Positions 12,259 through 59,640 of a DNA stretch of 64,000 nucleotides are shown here, in pieces. This DNA comes from Patescibacteria group bacterium (lineage in GTDB: Bacteria > Patescibacteriota > Microgenomatia > 2-02-FULL-39-11): the NCBI GenBank assembly GCA_023379265.1, contig JAMCUI010000004.1:9273-73272 (forward strand), read 5' to 3'. The translations under genes and the position numbers were made by a program. Under the pieces are notes generated by a model. The model searched no databases. It was not told the origin of the DNA and saw nothing but the letters and a program-made list of their open reading frames with translations. Position 1 is the stretch's first letter, and each line of letters opens with the position of its first letter.

Positions 12259-12762
12259 TTAATTCCAATTAGTCAAACATGACGATATGTCCACTTCAGG
12301 AGCTGGGGTTACACCCACAGCTCCTTTAGACCATTCCACTTTTGCCGTAATCTTATACGCCACGGGAGTGGGAGTTATTGTTGCTACCGGTAACGGACAG
12401 TCAGCGGGATTAGAACCGGAAATTTGAAGCGATTGGCCATAAGTTCCTGTCGGTGTAACCGGAACCGGAGTAAGGCCGCTGTTTATGTAGCAAGAGGAAA
12501 AACAGTTAGTAGTGAGAGAGCCCAGTCCGCCCGAATCCCGTATCACTCTTGCACGCTCGATCTGTTGGTTGGCAAGATTGGTAGCGATGCTCTTATTTTC
12601 CGAAAAGATAGAATTTCGTATGGCATATAGTTCAATAGCTGTAATACCGGACATAAACAGTATGATAAGAGTCAGCGCTACCAATACTTCAATCAGTGTT
12701 TGACCGCGTGTTATCAGACCTGCCGAGTCGGAAGCAACTCCTGTGCTAACATCAATGATCAT
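12259..12762 (-). CDS. pilin-like protein with an extended leader (MIIDVSTGVASDSAGLITRG|QTLIEVLVAL)
   Basis: G-QTLIE variant of the prepilin motif plus a hydrophobic helix. Its 5' end lies inside the 78-bp tandem repeat. Confidence 0.6.
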   Translation of the reverse strand: MIIDVSTGVASDSAGLITRGQTLIEVLVALTLIILFMSGITAIELYAIRNSIFSENKSIATNLANQQIERARVIRDSGGLGSLTTNCFSSCYINSGLTPVPVTPTGTYGQSLQISGSNPADCPLPVATITPTPVAYKITAKVEWSKGAVGVTPAPEVDISSCLTNWN

Positions 12763-12975
12763 AAACTTTAATATCTAAGGACACGGTGTTATCAGACCTG
12801 CCGAGTCGGAAGCAACTCCTGTGCTAACATCAATGATCATAAACTTTAATATCTAAGGACACGGTGTTATCAGACCTGCCGAGTCGGAAGCAACTCCTGT
12901 GCTAACATCAATGATCATAAACTTTAATATCTAAGGACACGGTGTTATCAGACCTGCCGAGTCGGAAGCAACTCC
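12709..12975. repeat. 78-bp tandem repeat, about 3.4 identical copies, spanning the junction of two pilin genes
   Basis: Unit starts at 12709, 12787, 12865 and 12943. Each unit carries, on the - strand, TAG, a 12-nt spacer and ATG with 20 further codons, giving the mini-ORF MIIDVSTGVASDSAGLITPCP*. Confidence 0.9.
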
Positions 12976-34631: not shown

Positions 34632-35471
34632 ATGAAAATTGACGGCAGAAAAATCGCCTACGGAATAAAAAATAGCCTGAAGAAGCAGGTAAACATCATC
34701 CTTTCTCAAAATATTTCTCCTCATCTTGCGGTAATTATTGTCGGGAAGGATAAAAGTTCGCTTGCCTACGTCAGGCAAAAACAAATAACCGGCGCCGATA
34801 TTGGAGTAAAAGTATCTGTAATATCCTTTCCTGATAATCTGGCGCAAAATAAGCTTTTTTCAGAAATTGACCGATTGAACCAAGATCGGTCAGTCCATGG
34901 CATCATAATCCAAAGGCCTCTACCAATAACCGTAGACAATATAAAACTTGATAAGGCCGTAACTCCACAAAAAGATGTTGATGGCTTTCACAAAAATTCC
35001 TTATTCCGCCCGCCAATAGCCCTAGCCATAATGCATATATTACATAATATATTTAGCACTATAAAAAATGATAAAAATGAAAGTTTTTCCGGCTGGCTTT
35101 CAAAAAAGAAAATACTGGTCATCGGTAGGGGAGAGACTGGTGGTAAACCTATAGCAAATTATTTGATGAAAAATAATTTATCTATAACTATAGCTCATAG
35201 TAAAACAACCGACTTAAAAAGGGCGTGTCTTACCTCGGAAATTATCGTAAGCTGTGTAGGGAAGTCAAACATTGTGCGACATGATATGATAACAAATAAA
35301 ACAATCCTGATTGGAGTCGGACTGCACCCTGAGGATAACAAACTACGGTCTGATTATGATGAAGCTGAAATCGCCCAAAGAGCCGCTTTTTACACACCAG
35401 TTCCAGGAGGTGTAGGACCTGTTAATGTAGCATGTCTCTTTGAAAATCTAGTTAAAGCGTGTAAGATATAG
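34632..35471 (+). CDS. folD: bifunctional methylenetetrahydrofolate dehydrogenase / cyclohydrolase
   Basis: AYVRQKQ ... VIGRGETGGKPIANYL ... TPVPGGVGPVNVACLFENL. Confidence 0.9.
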   Translation: MKIDGRKIAYGIKNSLKKQVNIILSQNISPHLAVIIVGKDKSSLAYVRQKQITGADIGVKVSVISFPDNLAQNKLFSEIDRLNQDRSVHGIIIQRPLPITVDNIKLDKAVTPQKDVDGFHKNSLFRPPIALAIMHILHNIFSTIKNDKNESFSGWLSKKKILVIGRGETGGKPIANYLMKNNLSITIAHSKTTDLKRACLTSEIIVSCVGKSNIVRHDMITNKTILIGVGLHPEDNKLRSDYDEAEIAQRAAFYTPVPGGVGPVNVACLFENLVKACKI

Positions 35472-35628
35472 AAGATTTTACAGATCTACCGGACCTGTTA
35501 ATGTAGCATGTCTCTTTGAAAATCTAGTTAAAGCGTGTAAGATATAGAAGATTTTACAGATCTACCGGACCTGTTAATGTAGCATGTCTCTTTGAAAATC
35601 TAGTTAAAGCGTGTAAGATATAGAAGAT
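35415..35628. repeat. 76-bp tandem repeat x2.8 whose first copy is the 3' end of folD
   Basis: Unit starts at 35415, 35491 and 35567. The last copy is truncated. Confidence 0.9.
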
Positions 35629-36284
35629 TAATACCTCTTATCAATAAACTCCATTTTCCCGTTATCAATCTTTAAGTACTGACCATAACCCCAGCGAATA
35701 AAACCTGTATTTATATATCTCTCCCTTAAATTAAACTCAGCCAGATGACTGTGTCCGCATACCAAAACAGTATTTTCCGGAAGATTGCTATTTAACCATT
35801 TTCTCATCCGGTTATTCTGACTTTTATAATAACTAAGTAGCGGCTTGCCCAAAATGGCCAAAGGTATCTTTTCCCGCAAAAACTGGTAAGCAGCCGTCAG
35901 TATCCGGCCATGAGGCAACCACAAATACCTGTCGTCAGCAGCTGGAGCTATACGGCAACCGTGCTCTATATGCAGGATTTTACCTCCGGCTTTCATTTTA
36001 TATATGTTCCGCTGGCTGACCGAAAAAAGATTCAAACTTTTATCAGACAGGCTTTTCCGGTCATGGTTACCAAAAAGATAAATAGTTTCCCGGGATTTTA
36101 ACAAAGGGAATAATTTTTTCCAGCCGCTTTCGAGAAAATCATCAAGGCTAACAATATACCCATCCCAGAAATCGCCATTTATTATCACTCTATCGGCAGG
36201 AGTGATAAGTCTGGTAAGGAAATCAAATTTAGTCTTTTCAAACTTTTTTGTCAGATGAGTATCTGAAAACACTACGGAAATCAT
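35628..36284 (-). CDS. calcineurin-like metallophosphoesterase
   Basis: VFSDTHL, INGDFWD, GNHD and CGHSH motifs. I chose the internal Met (MISVVFSDTHL) to avoid overlap with the xer gene. Confidence 0.7.
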   Translation of the reverse strand: MISVVFSDTHLTKKFEKTKFDFLTRLITPADRVIINGDFWDGYIVSLDDFLESGWKKLFPLLKSRETIYLFGNHDRKSLSDKSLNLFSVSQRNIYKMKAGGKILHIEHGCRIAPAADDRYLWLPHGRILTAAYQFLREKIPLAILGKPLLSYYKSQNNRMRKWLNSNLPENTVLVCGHSHLAEFNLRERYINTGFIRWGYGQYLKIDNGKMEFIDKRY

Positions 36285-48371: not shown

Positions 48372-49871
48372 TTATAATCCGGTTAGGTAGCTCAGTAATA
48401 GCCTCACTCCAAATCCAGTTCCGCCATACGGCGCTATGGGAGTATCTTTTTCTTCATAAGCCGGTCCTGCTATGTCAAGATGTACCCAGGGAGTTTTCCC
48501 TACAAATTCAGACAGGAATAACGAAGCGGTAATTGCACCGCCGTAGCGTCCGGCTTGTACATTTTTGATGTCGGCAATATGGCTTTTTAGGAGCTCCTTG
48601 TAGTCATCGGGTAAAGGCAGCCTCCAGACTCTCTCAGCTGCCGATCTAGCCGCATCCTCTATTTTTGAGAGCAGTTTATCATCATTCCCAAAAGCTCCTG
48701 CAATTTCCTGTCCCAGAGCGACCATACAAGCGCCAGTCAGTGTGGCCAGATCGATAATCTCGTCAGCCTTTTCCTTCATATTGGCAAAAGAAATGGCATC
48801 AGCCAAAGTCAACCTTCCCTCCGCATCGGTATTGAGAACCTCAATAGTTTTCCCGTTCATCGCCCGCAATATATCTCCGGGTTTGAGAGCACGGCCTGAA
48901 GGCATATTCTCACAGGCGGCAATAAGTCCCACCACCTCTACTTTCGGTCCTAATGCGGAAAGTGCGGAAAAAATACCCAGCACCGCTGCGGCTCCTGACA
49001 TATCAAGCTTCATTGTCTCCATAAATTCGGCAGGTTTGAGGGAAAGCCCCCCGGCGTCAAAAGTAATGCCTTTACCAATTATCACCACTTTTTTCTTTGC
49101 CACTGCTGAGGGCTTGTAGGACAGGTGTATGAATTTGGGCGGTTTATCGCTTCCCTCAGCCACTCCCAAAAATGACCCCATACCCAGTTTGGCAATCTCT
49201 CCTTTTTCAATAATCTTCACGCTAACTGATCCTTTTGACTTTTTGGCAATAAGAAGAGCGGTATTTGCCAAAAATTCCGGTGAGGTTAACTCGGGAGGTT
49301 CGTTCACCAGATCCCGCGCAAATATGACTGCATCTGCGGTTATCTTGCCCGGCGCTAAGCCGGATTCTCCGCCAGCCAGCTTGTTTGGCGGCAGATGGAT
49401 AACTACTTCCTCTATCGGTCTCGATTTGGATTTTTCTTCTTCTCCCTTAAACTTAAGAAATTTATAGGCTGAAAGCGATACGGCCTCAATAATTCCTTTT
49501 ACTGTCTCTCGTGCCGATAATTTGTTTATCCAAAAATCAGCTACTGAGATTGATATTTTTACAGGCTTGAGGCTCTGGGCTTTTTTTATTGCCAGGCTGA
49601 CAAACTTATTCAAGTTATAGTAGTCGACATTCTCAATCTTACCGGTCCCGACAAAAAGCACCTTGTAAGGCTCAATTTTGCCCAGTCCGGAGACTATCAG
49701 AAACTGCCCTTCCTTTCCTTCAAATATTTCTCTTTGGGCAGCGTCTTTGACAATTGATATAAATTCCTGACTAAATCCCTTCAACTTCCTTATCTCACCT
49801 TCGGAAACAAATTGTATTAATAAATCTGTGGAGAGCTTTGACGGTTCGGTAGGTTTCAATAGAAATTTCAT
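48372..49871 (-). CDS. pepA: leucyl aminopeptidase (M17)
   Basis: NTDAEGRLTLADA signature plus metal-binding K/D/E residues. Confidence 0.9.
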   Translation of the reverse strand: MKFLLKPTEPSKLSTDLLIQFVSEGEIRKLKGFSQEFISIVKDAAQREIFEGKEGQFLIVSGLGKIEPYKVLFVGTGKIENVDYYNLNKFVSLAIKKAQSLKPVKISISVADFWINKLSARETVKGIIEAVSLSAYKFLKFKGEEEKSKSRPIEEVVIHLPPNKLAGGESGLAPGKITADAVIFARDLVNEPPELTSPEFLANTALLIAKKSKGSVSVKIIEKGEIAKLGMGSFLGVAEGSDKPPKFIHLSYKPSAVAKKKVVIIGKGITFDAGGLSLKPAEFMETMKLDMSGAAAVLGIFSALSALGPKVEVVGLIAACENMPSGRALKPGDILRAMNGKTIEVLNTDAEGRLTLADAISFANMKEKADEIIDLATLTGACMVALGQEIAGAFGNDDKLLSKIEDAARSAAERVWRLPLPDDYKELLKSHIADIKNVQAGRYGGAITASLFLSEFVGKTPWVHLDIAGPAYEEKDTPIAPYGGTGFGVRLLLSYLTGL

Positions 49872-50054
49872 AATTTTTAGAATAACTGAAAATTAATAAA
49901 TTGTAGGATTCTTCTGGCAGGAATCAATTATTTGACTTATACTACTTATACAAAATATAATCGGGGGAGTCAATAAAACGGGTTGTTTAGTGGTCAGTCG
50001 TTTGTAGTTGGAGTTGGTTTTTTGTTTATTCTTTGTTATTTGTTCTATGAAATA

Positions 50055-50081
50055 GCCGAGGTGGCGGAATTGGCACCCACC
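50055..50081 (+). pseudogene. 5' fragment (acceptor arm plus D-arm) of a degenerate type-II tRNA, here called tRNA-B
   Basis: GCCGAGGTGGCGGAATTGGCA... Its acceptor 5' strand GCCGAGG is complementary to CCTCGGC at 50233-50239. Confidence 0.5.
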
Positions 50082-50088
50082 TAAATAT

Positions 50089-50175
50089 GCCGCGATGGTG
50101 GAATTGGCAGACACGCAGCTCTCAAAAAGCTGTGAGCCCAAAGCTCATGTCGGTTCGACTCCGACTCGCGGCACA
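50089..50175 (+). tRNA. tRNA-Leu(CAA), type II (long variable arm)
   Basis: Acceptor GCCGCGA/TCGCGGC, D-arm GTGG..CAC, anticodon stem CAGCT/AGCTG with loop CTCAAAA (anticodon CAA), variable-arm stem GAGC/GCTC, T-arm GTCGG-TTCGACT-CCGAC. Confidence 0.85.
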
Positions 50176-50180
50176 ATTTT

Positions 50181-50240
50181 TGGCTGGTCAAAAACCTGTG
50201 GGCCTCAAAGCTCATGAGGGTTCGAGTCCCTCCCTCGGCA
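50181..50240 (+). pseudogene. 3' portion (anticodon-loop region, variable arm, T-arm, acceptor 3' strand) of degenerate tRNA-B
   Basis: T-arm GAGGG-TTCGAGT-CCCTC is intact. The acceptor 3' strand CCTCGGC matches the 5' fragment upstream of tRNA-Leu. The anticodon stem does not pair. Confidence 0.5.
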
Positions 50241-50307
50241 CTTCGATCCGACATAATGTCGGGCCTCAGTGTAGGCACGAATGTCACACGGTTGTCTAGC
50301 CCATCAT

Positions 50308-50612
50308 TCTATCACCTGAACTACAAAATCTATGCACTCTGTTCCGTTTCAGCTGTCTTTTCCATACTGTAGAACCTTATTCTATCACCTGAACTACAAA
50401 ATCTATGCACTCTGTTCCGTTTCAGCTGTCTTTTCCATACTGTAGAACCTTATTCTATCACCTGAACTACAAAATCTATGCGCTCTGTTCCGTTTCAGCT
50501 GTCTTTTCCATACTGTAGAACCTTATTCTATCACCTGAACTACAAAATCTATGCGCTCTGTTCCGTTTCAGCTGTCTTTTCCATACTGTAGAACCTTATT
50601 CTGTCACCTTTG
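50308..50612. repeat. 73-bp tandem repeat x4.2 covering the dnaB 3' end. Each copy encodes ...MEKTAETEQSA* on the - strand
   Basis: Unit starts at 50308, 50381, 50454, 50527 and 50600. Copies 1-2 versus 3-4 differ by a single synonymous change (AGT versus AGC). Confidence 0.9.
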
Positions 50613-51889
50613 AAAATAAGGTCTATCTCCCCCAAAGCTCCGTTTCTGTGCTTGGCGATTAGAAGCTTGACTATCTGATGATCCCATTTCTCCAACTCTT
50701 GCTCCTCACGGTATAGAAACATCACTACATCTGCATCCTGCTCTATGGCACCTGACTCACGAAGATCCGCCAACTGCGGCACCTTCGTACCTCTTGCTTC
50801 AACAGCACGTGAAAGCTGGGAAACAGCAAGTACCGGAATCTTTAATTCCCTGGCAAGATTTTTTAAGGATTGTGACACTATCGATACTTCCTGCACCCTA
50901 TTATCATACCGGCGGCCGGGGTCTACCAGCTGCAGATAGTCAACAATAAGAAGTTTCACGTTGTGACTTACCTGAAGCCGACGGGCCTTAGTCCTCATTT
51001 CAAAAAGATTTATACCCGGCGTATCATCAATAAAAATTGGCGCTTCGGATAGCTCCCCCATCGCTTCTGAAAGCCTAGTAAAATCATCATCATTTAGTCT
51101 GCCGGTTTTCAGCCTCCAGGCATCTACATCAGCCTGCGCTACAAGTAACCTATCTACTAACTCTTCCTTGCTCATCTCCAAAGAAAATATGCCGACAGCC
51201 TGCTTTTGCGCCAGCGAAACGTACTGGGCAATATTTAGGACAAAAGCTGTTTTTCCTTGTCCTGGACGGGCGGCTAGTATCACCAGGTTGGAATCCTGCA
51301 GTCCAGCCAATTTGTTGTCTAAATCGGAAAATCCTGTAGGCACGCCCCGAAGTGATGAACCTCTCTTGTGCAATTCATCCAGCCTGTCAAAGCTTTCCGC
51401 CAGCGCATCCTTCACCTGTACAAAATCCTGTCTTGATCTTTTCAGAGCAATGGACAATATGTCGCTCTCTGCTTTATCAAGAAGCATCTTTACATCCGAC
51501 TGGTCACCAAAAGCAGACTCACTTATCCTGCCTGAACTTTCGATGAGACGCCGCTTGACATAGTTATCCGTCACTATATTGCTGTATACCTCAATATTGG
51601 CAGAAGTGGGTACGACATTGGTCAGATCTGTCAGGTATGCTGTGCCTCCAACATCCTTGTATTTGCCCATTTTTTTCAGTTGTGAGGTAACAGTGACGAT
51701 ATCAACCGGCTCATGCCGCTCAAAAAGAGCCATCATCGCGGCATAAATATGATTGTGTGCATCCTTATAAAAAAATTCCGGCCTGAGGAAATCAACCACA
51801 TCTGCCAAAGCGTCTTTATCAATAAGTATGGCACCCAACACACTGGCTTCTGCCTGCTCATCATGAGGGGGTATTCTTGCTTCAGCCAT
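50549..51889 (-). CDS. dnaB: replicative DNA helicase DnaB
   Basis: Walker A ARPGQGKTAF, Walker B LLIVDYLQL, and DnaB N-terminal domain ILGAILID. Confidence 0.9.
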   Translation of the reverse strand: MAEARIPPHDEQAEASVLGAILIDKDALADVVDFLRPEFFYKDAHNHIYAAMMALFERHEPVDIVTVTSQLKKMGKYKDVGGTAYLTDLTNVVPTSANIEVYSNIVTDNYVKRRLIESSGRISESAFGDQSDVKMLLDKAESDILSIALKRSRQDFVQVKDALAESFDRLDELHKRGSSLRGVPTGFSDLDNKLAGLQDSNLVILAARPGQGKTAFVLNIAQYVSLAQKQAVGIFSLEMSKEELVDRLLVAQADVDAWRLKTGRLNDDDFTRLSEAMGELSEAPIFIDDTPGINLFEMRTKARRLQVSHNVKLLIVDYLQLVDPGRRYDNRVQEVSIVSQSLKNLARELKIPVLAVSQLSRAVEARGTKVPQLADLRESGAIEQDADVVMFLYREEQELEKWDHQIVKLLIAKHRNGALGEIDLIFKGDRIRFYSMEKTAETEQSA

Positions 51890-52075
51890 AGTTCAACTCC
51901 AGTGGAAATTTAACTAAAATTAAAAACTGCTCATCATGAGGGGGTATTCTTGCTTCAGCCATAGTTCAACTCCAGTGGAAATTTAACTAAAATTAAAAAC
52001 TGCTCATCATGAGGAGGTATTCTTGCTTCAGCCATAGTTCAACTCCAGTGGAAATTTAACTAAAATTAAAAACTG
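51854..52075. repeat. 73-bp tandem repeat x3 covering the dnaB 5' end (start codon plus the first 12 codons plus 5'UTR)
   Basis: Unit starts at 51854, 51927 and 52000. The third copy has a GGGGG to GGAGG change. Confidence 0.9.
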
Positions 52076-52087
52076 CTGTTTTGACGT

Positions 52088-57367: not shown

Positions 57368-58324
57368 ATGCTTTATGACTTCTCTAAAACCGTCCAAACA
57401 AAGACAATGCAGAAAATCTTATCCAAAAGTCATAATAGGGCGATCCTTGCTCTTATTGTCGCCAACAGTATCTGGGGTGCCGCCTCTCCTATATTCAAAC
57501 TGGCTCTTGAAAATATCCCGCCTTTTACCCTTGCTTTTTTCCGTTTTTTCGGCGCCATGGCAATCATTTTCCCTTTTGCCGTAAACGACTTCTGGATAAG
57601 GAAAAAAGACTGGCCCAACCTCATCTTCCTTTCCCTTTGCGGCATCACGGTAAACATCACTTTCTTCTTCTGGGGACTGCAGGAGGCTCCGGCTATAAAT
57701 GCGCCGATTATAGCTTCCTCTGGACCAGTATTTATATACCTTTTTGCAGTATTGTTTCTCAAAGAAAAACTCCACCCCAAAGTATTATCAGGAATAATGG
57801 TTGGCCTTACCGGAGTTCTAGCTATCGTCCTGCAACCAGTATTTACCCATGAGCCTGACGGGCGGATCCTGGGAAACATTTTCTTCGTCATTGCCACTCT
57901 GGGTACAGTAGGATATGTCATTTTCAGCAAAAAAATTGTGAAGTATTATAATGCTGCCACGCTCACTTTCTGGTCGTTTCTTATCGGCAGCCTGACGTTT
58001 TTACCCATGTTTATATGGGAAATGAGAAACCTCCATCCCTTTTACACGATCGATTACCGCGGTTGGATTGGCCTGGCCTTTGGCATATTCCTCTCCTCCG
58101 CTTTAGCTTATTTCCTTTATGAATGGAGTATAAAAAGTCTCCTAGCCCAGGACGTGGGAATATTTACATATATCGATCCGGTTGTGGCGGCAATTATTGC
58201 GGTACCACTATTGGGAGAAGTCATCACACCAATTTACCTCCTGGGATCATTTCTTGTCTTTGCCGGCATCTATGTAGCCGGGGGCCGTCTGCACTGGCAC
58301 CCGATACATTGGTTAAAGAGGTGA
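57368..58324 (+). CDS. DMT-superfamily (EamA-like) transporter
   Basis: 10 TM helices in two EamA-like halves. Start is taken at the ATG just after the hisS stop. Confidence 0.7.
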   Translation: MLYDFSKTVQTKTMQKILSKSHNRAILALIVANSIWGAASPIFKLALENIPPFTLAFFRFFGAMAIIFPFAVNDFWIRKKDWPNLIFLSLCGITVNITFFFWGLQEAPAINAPIIASSGPVFIYLFAVLFLKEKLHPKVLSGIMVGLTGVLAIVLQPVFTHEPDGRILGNIFFVIATLGTVGYVIFSKKIVKYYNAATLTFWSFLIGSLTFLPMFIWEMRNLHPFYTIDYRGWIGLAFGIFLSSALAYFLYEWSIKSLLAQDVGIFTYIDPVVAAIIAVPLLGEVITPIYLLGSFLVFAGIYVAGGRLHWHPIHWLKR

Positions 58325-58464
58325 CTTCTGCTGCACTGGCACCCGATACATTGGTTAAAGAGGTGACTTCTGCTGCACTGGCACCCGATACATTGGTTAA
58401 AGAGGTGACTTCTGCTGCACTGGCACCCGATACATTGGTTAAAGAGGTGACTTCTGCTGCACTG
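58289..58464. repeat. 42-bp tandem repeat x4.2 whose first copy is the 3' end of the DMT transporter gene (…LHWHPIHWLKR*)
   Basis: Unit starts at 58289, 58331, 58373, 58415 and 58457. Copies are identical. Confidence 0.9.
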
Positions 58465-58507: not shown

Positions 58508-58715
58508 GCCGGAATGGTGGAATTCTGCTTTACTTCACAGCCTAATCGGCCGGAATGGTGGAAACCGGCCGATTGACTCGGTAAAAGCTAATCACCAACC
58601 TCTGATTTACAACGTTCGGGAACTGGCCGGAATGGTGGAAACCGGCCGATTGACTCGGTAAAAGCTAATCACCAACCTCTGATTTACAACGTTCGGGAAC
58701 TGGCCGGAATGGTGG
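58508..58715. repeat. 77-bp repeated hairpin element (stem GGCCGG / CCGGCC, loop aatggtggaaa) x2.2, plus a partial copy upstream
   Basis: Unit starts at 58548, 58625 and 58702, with a partial copy at 58508. Confidence 0.85.
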
Positions 58716-58773
58716 AAGCAGGCTCGATTGCTACTCTTCCCTTCCTGCAAAATAAATGGTATAATCTACTTTT

Positions 58774-59255: not shown

Positions 59256-59640
59256 ATGAATAATGATATTGTTATATTAGAAATCCATGGGGCAACAGCT
59301 GACTCGGTCATTTTAGAAATCCATGGGGCAACAGCAGATATGTTAGTATAATTGTTTAACGGATTATGAATACTGACTCGGTCATTTTAGAAATCCATGG
59401 GGCAACAGCTGACTCGGTCATTTTAGAAATCCATGGGGCAACAGCTGACTCGGTCATTTTAGAAATCCATGGGGCAACAGCTGACTCGGTCATTTTAGAA
59501 ATCCATGGGGCAACAGCAGATATGTTAGTATAATTGTTTAACGGATTATGAATACTGACTCGGTCATTTTAGAAATCCATGGGGCAACAGCTGACTCGGT
59601 CATTTTAGAAATCCATGGGGCAACAGGTGGTGATGAAGCC
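59256..59640. repeat. nested tandem duplication of the release-factor gene 5' end. The outer unit is repeated 3 times and contains a 36-bp inner unit ([12 protein letters not shown]) present in 2, 4 and 2 copies
   Basis: Inner-unit starts at 59265 (variant), 59301, 59375, 59411, 59447, 59483, 59557 and 59593. Upstream mini-ORFs are 59256-59351 and 59366-59533. Confidence 0.9.

Follow-up and report, generated by a model that had tools for sequence, protein, structure and literature searches.

How does a complete tRNA gene come to lie inside another one? This question is raised by a stretch of 64,000 nt (in the following, the window) from contig JAMCUI010000004.1 of a Patescibacteria group bacterium (assembly GCA_023379265.1, positions 9,273 to 73,272 of the forward strand). 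At window positions 50055–50240 a complete tRNA-Leu(CAA) gene (50089–50173) is located inside the two halves of a second tRNA-Leu(CAA). On the plus strand the order is GCCGAGGTGGCGGAATTGGCA, CCCACCTAAATAT, the 85-nt tRNA-Leu(CAA), CAATTTTTGGCTGG and TCAAAAACCTGTGGGCCTCAAAGCTCATGAGGGTTCGAGTCCCTCCCTCGGCA. The first of these elements is a 5' remnant of the outer tRNA (50055–50075, positions 1–21, that is the acceptor 5' strand, the 5' strand of the D stem and the D loop). The last one, 53 nt in length, is its 3' remnant (50188–50240), which runs from U33 to the discriminator A and comprises part of the anticodon loop, the 3' strand of the anticodon stem, the variable arm, the T arm and the acceptor 3' strand. 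Two short flanks separate the inner gene, which extends through its discriminator A73, from these remnants. The left flank CCCACCTAAATAT (50076–50088, 13 nt) consists of a GC hexamer and an AT-rich leader, the right flank CAATTTTTGGCTGG (50174–50187, 14 nt) of an AT-rich trailer and a GC hexamer, which is an imperfect inverted repeat of the left one (CCCACC vs. GGCTGG). Inner gene and flanks together form what we call the cassette. As judged by sequence comparison, the native gene is the outer one, and the inner tRNA is a later, foreign arrival; of the native gene two pieces remain, by prediction a dead relic, and behind the native promoter stands the intact inner gene.

ARAGORN calls a single tRNA in the whole window, the inner tRNA-Leu(CAA), which it lets end at 50174, one base past the 3' end given here. 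With the Rfam tRNA model RF00005 this gene reaches 54.1 bits (gathering score 29), and no other family is above threshold at positions 49500–51500. It scores 96.9 bits with R1, a covariance model for which 46 resident tRNA-Leu(CAA) genes from relatives were used. Cloverleaf, G18 and G19, the T-loop TTCGA, U33, a long variable arm and A73 are all present. The outer 3' piece is recognized by R1 as well, with 26.6 bits at 50183–50241 (E ~6e-7, the E-values of this model being rough), and a tRNA-Leu(CAA) profile matches 50188–50241 in nhmmer at E = 3e-10, so that a covariance model does not treat this piece as random sequence. The 21-nt 5' piece alone is too short for a covariance model and obtains a non-significant 2.2 bits. 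Its acceptor strand pairs in seven of seven positions with 50233–50239 (GCCGAGG/CCTCGGC), and the T arm (GAGGG/CCCTC) and the variable arm of the outer gene pair, too. Its acceptor stem and its T stem each differ from those of the inner gene by two compensatory pair changes. A preliminary description of this locus had seen a complete tRNA-Leu(CAA) between the halves of a second, type-II tRNA with a covarying acceptor stem, which ARAGORN, R1 and the 7/7 pairing bear out. The extents of 27 and 60 nt which it gave for the outer fragments have to be corrected: the native pieces are really 50055–50075 (21 nt) and 50188–50240 (53 nt), and 50076–50081 and 50181–50187 belong to the cassette flanks. 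For the same reason the unpaired anticodon stem, there taken as decay, is nothing of the kind, since the non-pairing strand is a conserved flank brought by the cassette and not decayed native sequence.

When the outer halves were joined in silico, ARAGORN reported a tRNA for 182 out of 300 junction choices, all with an odd anticodon, and none for the precise native join. The joined outer gene is not a complete cloverleaf, as positions 22–32 are absent relative to the closest relative, L002. An assembly chimera was considered and rejected: the same left junction is present in a Logan contig from another run and pipeline (SRR10267473, L318), and the architecture recurs across projects and assemblers.

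The window was also placed in contig JAMDBJ010000009.1 of assembly GCA_023487465.1. The locus is flanked by the genes for leucyl aminopeptidase (pepA, 48372–49871) and the replicative helicase DnaB (50549–51889), both on the minus strand. A scan with the DnaB protein, taking one genome per species, yielded 80 loci, according to the titles of their records from Gottesmanbacteria, Levybacteria and other Microgenomates-type Patescibacteria, and in 68 of these a tRNA-Leu(CAA) is found near dnaB. L002 is syntenic (pepA, tRNA, dnaB), with 90–92.5% nucleotide identity over pepA, spacer and dnaB. At the homologous place it holds one intact 86-nt tRNA-Leu(CAA), GCCGAGGTGGCGGAATTGGCAGACGCGCAGGTCTCAAAAACCTGTGGGCCTCAAAGCTCATGAGGGTTCGAGTCCCTCCTTCGGCA, and not two ordinary adjacent tRNAs. 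BLASTN against this single tRNA aligns window positions 50188–50242 at 98% and 50050–50075 at 96% identity. All 21 nt of the outer 5' remnant agree with it, and the outer 3' remnant equals its last 53 nt save one base (98% identity). Where L002 reads GGCA, GACGCGCAGGTC, TCAAAAA, the window has the 112-nt cassette instead of the 12-nt GACGCGCAGGTC (tRNA positions 22–32); neither flank occurs in L002. It is this empty site with an outer-type tRNA which identifies the outer gene as native and the inner one as having arrived later. The expectation that both tRNAs had once been functional is thereby supported, the outer one being the ortholog of the single intact tRNA of L002. The inner gene has ~82–85% identity to this native type. 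It is closer to the resident tRNA of another Gottesmanbacterium, L004 (92%), to the inner genes of the nested loci L121 (93%) and L110 (95%), and to the interrupted outer gene of L128 (97%).

Is this arrangement found elsewhere? Using a profile of the resident tRNAs, extra fragments were detected beside the full gene in other species representatives. L019 has a 5' piece, a full gene and a 3' piece as in the window, with the break at the same profile position (nhmmer); in L003 a 5' piece is accompanied by two 3' relics in succession, and in L074 the neighbour of the full gene is truncated at its 5' end. Metagenomes were then scanned with a pattern, checked locally first, that combines the anticodon loop CTCAAAAA with two T loops, the second of which is too near to be part of a full second gene. 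The resulting 111 stretches are to about one half ordinary tight tRNA clusters (e.g. Leu-Gln with 1–3 nt spacers), the rest including many nested loci. Altogether, 14 non-redundant cassettes of 109–127 nt with homologous inverted-repeat flanks were obtained, window and L019 counted. These cassettes form a family in Microgenomates-type Patescibacteria with conserved inverted-repeat ends. Cassette-like flanks are found at none of 65 un-nested resident tRNA-Leu(CAA) genes next to dnaB. The survey covered tRNA-Leu(CAA) only, and the data set is biased to it.

The cassettes fall into two classes. In class 1 (window, L084, L098, L102, L110, L117, L121, L153) the outer 5' piece ends at position 21 with GG(C/T)A, in L153 one base further, and positions 22–32 (11–12 nt) are removed; in class 2 (L019, L094, L108, L128, L164, L185) the cassette has been inserted cleanly between positions 32 and 33, the 5' piece ending at position 32 in ...GGTC. 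The right junction lies invariably just 5' of TCA(A/G)AAA in the anticodon loop, where the outer 3' piece begins with U33 (TCA(A/G)AAA in class 1, TCAAAAA in class 2). Left flanks read CCCRCC followed by TAAAT(A/T)T in class 1 and CCTGCC followed by CG(A/C)AAT in class 2; right flanks read AATTTTT followed by GGCGGG, and A(T/G)CTTT followed by GGCAGGCGGG, respectively. Thus the left flank CCCACCTAAATAT of the window is homologous to CCCGCCTAAAT(A/T)T in L084, L098, L110, L117 and L121, and its right flank CAATTTTTGGCTGG to AATTTTTGGCGGG in other class-1 cassettes. The flanks of both classes can be aligned with each other, and their terminal GC hexamers are mutually inverted repeats. The family ends, CCYRCC...GGCRGG plus AAAT/ATTT, measure only 6–12 nt, are imperfect in the window and show no clear covariation. 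The most constant feature is the hexamer GGCGGG directly before TCAAAAA (GGCTGG in the window, GTCGGG in L117, GGCGAG in L164). Removal of the cassette restores a tRNA-Leu(CAA) callable by ARAGORN in five of the six class-2 cases and in no class-1 case, because the same 11–12 nt are absent there each time. Two variants were noted: L151 has TCCCGC...tRNA...GCGGGA in place of the whole anticodon arm, and in L150 the full gene is followed by GGCGGGG and a 3' copy of itself.

Some further sequences resemble these ends. The outer 5' halves of L121 and L126 carry extra inserts with class-2-like flanks (CTTGCCCGCAAT ... TTGCAGGCGG) and no tRNA between them. GC-rich palindromes of the type CCTGCC(TGCC)GGCAGG(CAGG), equivalent to two class-2 cassette hexamers abutted, occur in several genomes, often within decaying tRNA relics at loop boundaries (L019 1256–1271, L074 8343–8358, L092 1832–1847, L126 953–968, L134 1634–1645 and 2023–2038, L073 2291–2307, L009 1915–1932); they may be footprints, precursors or a REP-like (repetitive extragenic palindromic) repeat. 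As to other tRNA species, orphan T loops near them in 1.3 Mb were mostly due to missed or intron-bearing tRNAs. In L188 (~1484–1700) a tRNA-Gly(CCC) is followed by two tRNA-like mini-helices of acceptor and T arm, one of which has CAGGCAGG at the place of the D and anticodon arms.

Do the nested loci descend from one insertion or from many? The outer acceptor strands pair in seven of seven positions in 11 out of 13 cases, although their sequences differ (GCCGAGG, GCCAAGG, GGCGCGG, GCCCGCG, GGCGCAG and others). Split dead halves could not co-evolve, therefore each outer gene must have been intact when it was hit, and since the outer genes differ and still pair, many separate insertions with the same end points have to be assumed. 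For class 1 these are at least seven independent events with the same two end points. Replacement also occurs in succession. The inner tRNA type of the window is the invader here and the victim in L128, and L102 and L156 (two samples, identical in 999 of 1000 positions) show three nested levels, all with class-1 junctions. In L003, a close relative of the window, a working gene of the GGGCGGG type lies inside relics of a GCCGCGG-type gene, and then follows a 3' relic of the GCCGAGG type, which is the native one in the window, L002 and L006. Taking the six closest genomes, five different tRNA-Leu(CAA) acceptor stems are present at this locus, and two of the six have relics of replaced tRNA types. 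Older outer copies have decayed; those of L003, L094, L121 and L126 carry hairpin insertions and truncations. L110 and the window have only a 186-nt unit in common (92.6%), which is located inside unrelated genes, and L176 and L185 only their nested tRNA region (224 nt at 91.5%). L108 and L185 have the same flanks and inner tRNAs that are 98% identical, versus 86% for their outer tRNAs. These comparisons suggest that the cassette moves without its surroundings.

The explanation which we favour, and regard as moderately probable, is that a small non-autonomous cassette replaces the resident tRNA gene via site-directed recombination. Its parts differ in firmness: a history of replacement by cassettes appears very probable, and once this history is granted, the chances for a dedicated insertion mechanism are about even. 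The cassette would enter the cell as foreign DNA, and an insertion enzyme acting in trans would read its conserved ends together with the conserved anticodon-loop DNA of the target. By replacing positions 22–32 (class 1) or inserting after position 32 (class 2) the cassette would kill the resident gene and supply the substitute at once, and each newcomer would be open to the next invasion, giving rise to nested genes. As the resident is an essential single-copy gene which is destroyed and substituted by the cassette, the latter could not be lost once it is in. For a dedicated reaction speak the same two end points in many different targets and flanks which, judged by eye, vary no more than the cargo tRNAs. 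One may go further and see here a minimal selfish element with an essential gene as its sole cargo, a ~110-bp cassette homing into the anticodon-arm DNA of any tRNA-Leu(CAA) as a kill-and-replace drive; we give this a little less than an even chance. Such an element would kill the resident gene, take over its job and later be overwritten by the next cassette, with nested relics left behind. A folded single-strand intermediate taken up by presumably competent cells may be what moves.

A number of observations weigh against this explanation. When the open reading frames within 3 kb of 14 nested loci were listed and ten of the proteins scanned against Pfam, no recombinase, transposase or nuclease was found consistently beside them; the neighbours are housekeeping genes, apart from PIN-domain genes (L128, L094), GIY-YIG genes upstream of the tRNA (L092, L134) and a DDE transposase 1.2 kb away in L117 only. 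None of the junctions shows a target-site duplication, and the junction expected from a circular or tandem cassette (right flank, then left flank) was not found outside native contexts. The GC hexamers of the window pair imperfectly and the flanks covary little, thus the conservation of the flanks could reflect common descent and not function. On either side the junction borders on one of the best-conserved blocks of tRNA-Leu(CAA), to the left GG(C/T)A of the D loop or GGTC, to the right TCAAAAA. As these are the only short blocks common to all the tRNAs concerned, microhomology-limited recombination after DNA uptake is a serious rival. The search pattern was modelled on the window and could find only tRNA-Leu(CAA) cases with the geometry of the window. 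Finally, viral contigs are without a comparable arrangement: the nested pattern matched two IMG/VR contigs, both with unrelated 3'-fragment arrangements, and the right-junction pattern gave 120 non-specific matches in viral contigs, none of them beside a tRNA-Leu, which leaves a phage as carrier unsupported.

At the right junction, the adjacent anticodon loop lacks 2 nt in every case. A conservative site-specific exchange with a shared TC core was considered but not adopted, as the products are 2 nt shorter than predicted (by hand).

Two kinds of nuclease gene near such loci are recorded here. VapC toxins cut tRNA anticodon loops, and PIN-domain (VapC-like) genes are located a few hundred bases from the nested tRNA at two different class-2 loci (L128 10743–11189, L094 692–1370); in L094 a small open reading frame beside this gene is a candidate antitoxin partner. 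A link between PIN-domain genes and nested tRNAs is possible. In L092 and L134/L160 small GIY-YIG nuclease genes (~81–83 aa) end less than about 50 nt upstream of a tRNA-Leu(CAA), and these loci also have relic 3' fragments. A similar GIY-YIG C-terminal peptide (HEIIKEI) can be read upstream of the nested tRNA of L084.

Among the alternatives, a homing-like spread without any dedicated enzyme comes nearest to the data. DNA of a nested locus would be taken up and recombine through the short blocks common to tRNA-Leu(CAA) genes, the flanks being passengers from the first event. Besides the position of both junctions at these blocks (GG(C/T)A or GGTC; TCAAAAA) and the lack of an enzyme near the nested loci, the right flank, GGC(A)GGCGGGTC, speaks for it, as this flank resembles the segment from D loop to anticodon stem in tRNAs such as the outer one of L185 and the inner one of L164. 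In L128 and L019, furthermore, the base beside the left junction does not fit the requirement of the 3' stem strand, which resembles a short co-conversion. However, the usable identity at the junctions is only ~4–13 nt, the outer pieces of the window are native right up to both junctions, and the flanks look by eye to be conserved to about the same degree as the cargo tRNAs. Identical end points in at least seven independent class-1 events are hard to obtain from rare illegitimate recombination unless selection is strong. We therefore consider this alternative rather unlikely, though it deserves to be taken seriously. A conventional integration scores much lower. Anticodon loops are classical crossover sites of integrases and displaced 3' tRNA fragments are the usual scar of integration, hence one may think of the footprint of an integrase-borne island or prophage which carried its own tRNA and was then almost wholly deleted. 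A 3' fragment ~1.4 kb from the full gene in L079 and further 3' relics starting in the T loop in L108 and L003 would fit. Against it, all 14 cassettes measure 109–127 nt with homologous ends on both sides and no remnant of an island, and deletions arising independently would not all end at identical bases. No hybrid was made of the resident gene, the two halves of the inner tRNA belong together, and no integrase is nearby, which makes such a footprint very unlikely. Of the three readings offered in the preliminary description, site-specific integration into a tRNA gene was still the closest, though not in its classical form: an integrase, an island and a reconstituted resident gene are missing.

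Its two other readings, a functional split or permuted tRNA and a nested duplication of gene ends, are not supported. If the arrangement were functional, one transcript would give two tRNAs, the inner one behaving as an intron-like insert and the outer halves being joined or forming a split tRNA. The predicted fold of the 186 nt in the window indeed closes both acceptor stems, and the class-2 insert lies exactly between positions 32 and 33, its removal restoring a tRNA-Leu(CAA) in five of six cases. Yet 12 nt of the outer gene are gone in the window, as are 11–12 nt in all class-1 cases, and the older outer copies of relatives (L003, L094, L121, L126) decay. No group I intron was matched in the 2-kb region, and inspection of the junctions by hand revealed no bulge-helix-bulge; to our knowledge, no protein-based tRNA splicing exists in bacteria. 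We regard a functional arrangement as highly improbable. For a local duplication of both gene ends with later divergence we see hardly any chance. It is suggested by the adjacent dnaB gene with its perfect 73-bp tandem repeats at both ends, and by L150, where the 3' fragment is nearly identical to the 3' half of the inner gene including the trailing flank. But the dnaB repeats are 99–100% identical and the inner and outer genes only ~82–85%; the latter differ by ~15–18% with four compensatory pair changes, and the outer gene is 96–98% identical to the functional gene of L002. A dead duplicate cannot stay closer to the gene of a relative than the working copy does. Moreover, the site is empty in L002, and the flanks are common to unrelated genomes.

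How, then, does the cassette relate to known systems? It shares with integrative elements of the tyrosine integrase type the tRNA target, the crossover in the anticodon loop, the displaced 3' fragment and the stacking of events. However, it is a 112-nt insert without integrase and without kilobase-scale cargo. Integrative elements rebuild the host gene with a matching 3' half, whereas the cassette comes with a complete gene of its own, the host gene being broken into two dead pieces; besides the 3' fragment one from the 5' side is stranded, too, and in class 1 11–12 nt of the target are deleted. An integrase beside an attachment (att) site was not seen, the open reading frames near the window locus and the 14 nested loci being housekeeping genes, bar the few inconsistent exceptions. 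Nor was the host gene rebuilt by an element-borne 3' segment with a direct repeat of it at the far end, as the inner tRNA has its own 5' half, distinct from the stranded 5' fragment of the host. Miniature inverted-repeat transposable elements (MITEs) and REPIN-like elements are similar in size (~110 bp), in what may be short terminal inverted repeats and in coding for no protein, from which it follows that the cassette depends on functions in trans. It differs from MITEs in that target-site duplications are absent, the cargo is essential and homologous to the target, and no parent insertion sequence was identified. In place of many copies there is one in the 64-kb window, and at the loci looked at, the flanks surrounded no gene other than tRNA-Leu(CAA).

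Integron gene cassettes are small promoterless one-gene units as well, use a fixed site and an upstream promoter, and it is the newest unit that counts. Here, in contrast, attC/attI and an integrase are lacking, the units nest instead of lining up, and the site is the previous cassette's own gene. Disrupted tRNA genes of archaea likewise come in pieces, with an intervening sequence inside the tRNA body. But the host here is a bacterium, the pieces are relics, and the intervening sequence itself is a working tRNA; at class-1 and class-2 junctions no 3-4-3 bulge-helix-bulge was recognized by hand, and the predicted fold shows only a leader-trailer helix. Group I introns of tRNA genes also insert into the anticodon loop, vary in presence between close relatives and may spread into intact alleles. 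The C before the class-2 insert and the G as its last base are even permitted by the rules of a preprint on group I introns in bacterial tRNAs, which concerns ribozyme introns. The cassette, on the other hand, has no ribozyme core, its ~110 nt being mostly tRNA, class 1 cannot restore the host tRNA, and host copies decay. No intron family was found by the Rfam scan of 49500–51500 at E-values up to 10. A paper on insertions into rRNA genes of these bacteria makes no mention of tRNA. Full-text literature searches, the coverage of which is incomplete so that this is absence of evidence only, returned no description of tRNA-in-tRNA cassettes.

What we see here has the look of an undescribed route by which an essential gene takes the place of its resident copy. 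If mobile, the cassette would be the smallest known element carrying and spreading an essential gene and would provide a new answer to the exchange of tRNA genes between lineages. Target and ends comprise only tens of bases (an empty site would read GGCAGACGCGCAGGTCTCAAAAA), which makes for a clean system to find new site-directed recombination activity in Patescibacteria. There are practical consequences, too. tRNA finders report the inner gene only and either overlook the relics or could take them for pseudogenes or introns; markers based on tRNA and predictions of attachment sites in these genomes are affected. From the order of nesting one can read off in which order the gene at the locus was successively replaced.

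The transcription of the locus is most likely driven as a whole by a promoter-like site on the plus strand, TTGACT-18 nt-TATAAT (49932–49961), which agrees with the consensus in 11 of 12 positions. It is located ~95 nt upstream of the tRNA locus, and the respective block is kept upstream of the tRNA in L002–L006. Between this conserved block and the outer tRNA there is a T/G-rich stretch of ~64 nt (49991–50054), in which no tRNA-like content was seen; in L002 it comprises 13 nt.

Downstream of the locus, a palindrome had been reported previously. It is indeed present (CCGACATAATGTCGG, CCGACAT-A-ATGTCGG), at recomputed coordinates 50248–50262, one base to the right of the 50247–50261 given before, and probably is outside the cassette. 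It is not followed by a run of T, and a terminator scan makes no call. Within 50241–50262 the arms of the palindrome are identical to the T-stem strands of the inner tRNA, and TTCGAT precedes it. At this place L002 holds only ...TTGATTTATGTCAA..., for which reason the left arm looks like a local inverted templated insertion, which would have turned native sequence into a palindrome.

The association of tRNA-Leu(CAA) with dnaB extends across the Microgenomates (L002–L081), with the strand flipping between clades and a distance ranging from less than 100 nt to almost 4 kb. L004 and L005 have the same upstream flank to the base before the tRNA; their tRNAs differ and the downstream DNA is unrelated, thus the tRNA is a break point of synteny. 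L002, L004, L008 and many others are Patescibacteria by DnaB similarity and gene order but are titled 'uncultured Gammaproteobacteria bacterium', probably a labelling error.

The repeats of dnaB belong to a set of seven tandem arrays in the window (12708–12975, 35415–35629, 50306–50609, 51854–52077, 58289–58464, 58548–58730 and 59277–59626), with 97–100% matches and periods of 42–182 nt, mostly 73–78. The arrays are not found in L002, and two of them lie close to the ends of Logan contigs from the same organism. Exact-protein look-ups for the remainder of the window yielded nothing but short Logan contigs. All seven overlap the start or stop of an open reading frame or are located within ~230 nt of one, the start region of dnaB itself being present in 3.1 copies and its stop region in 4.2.

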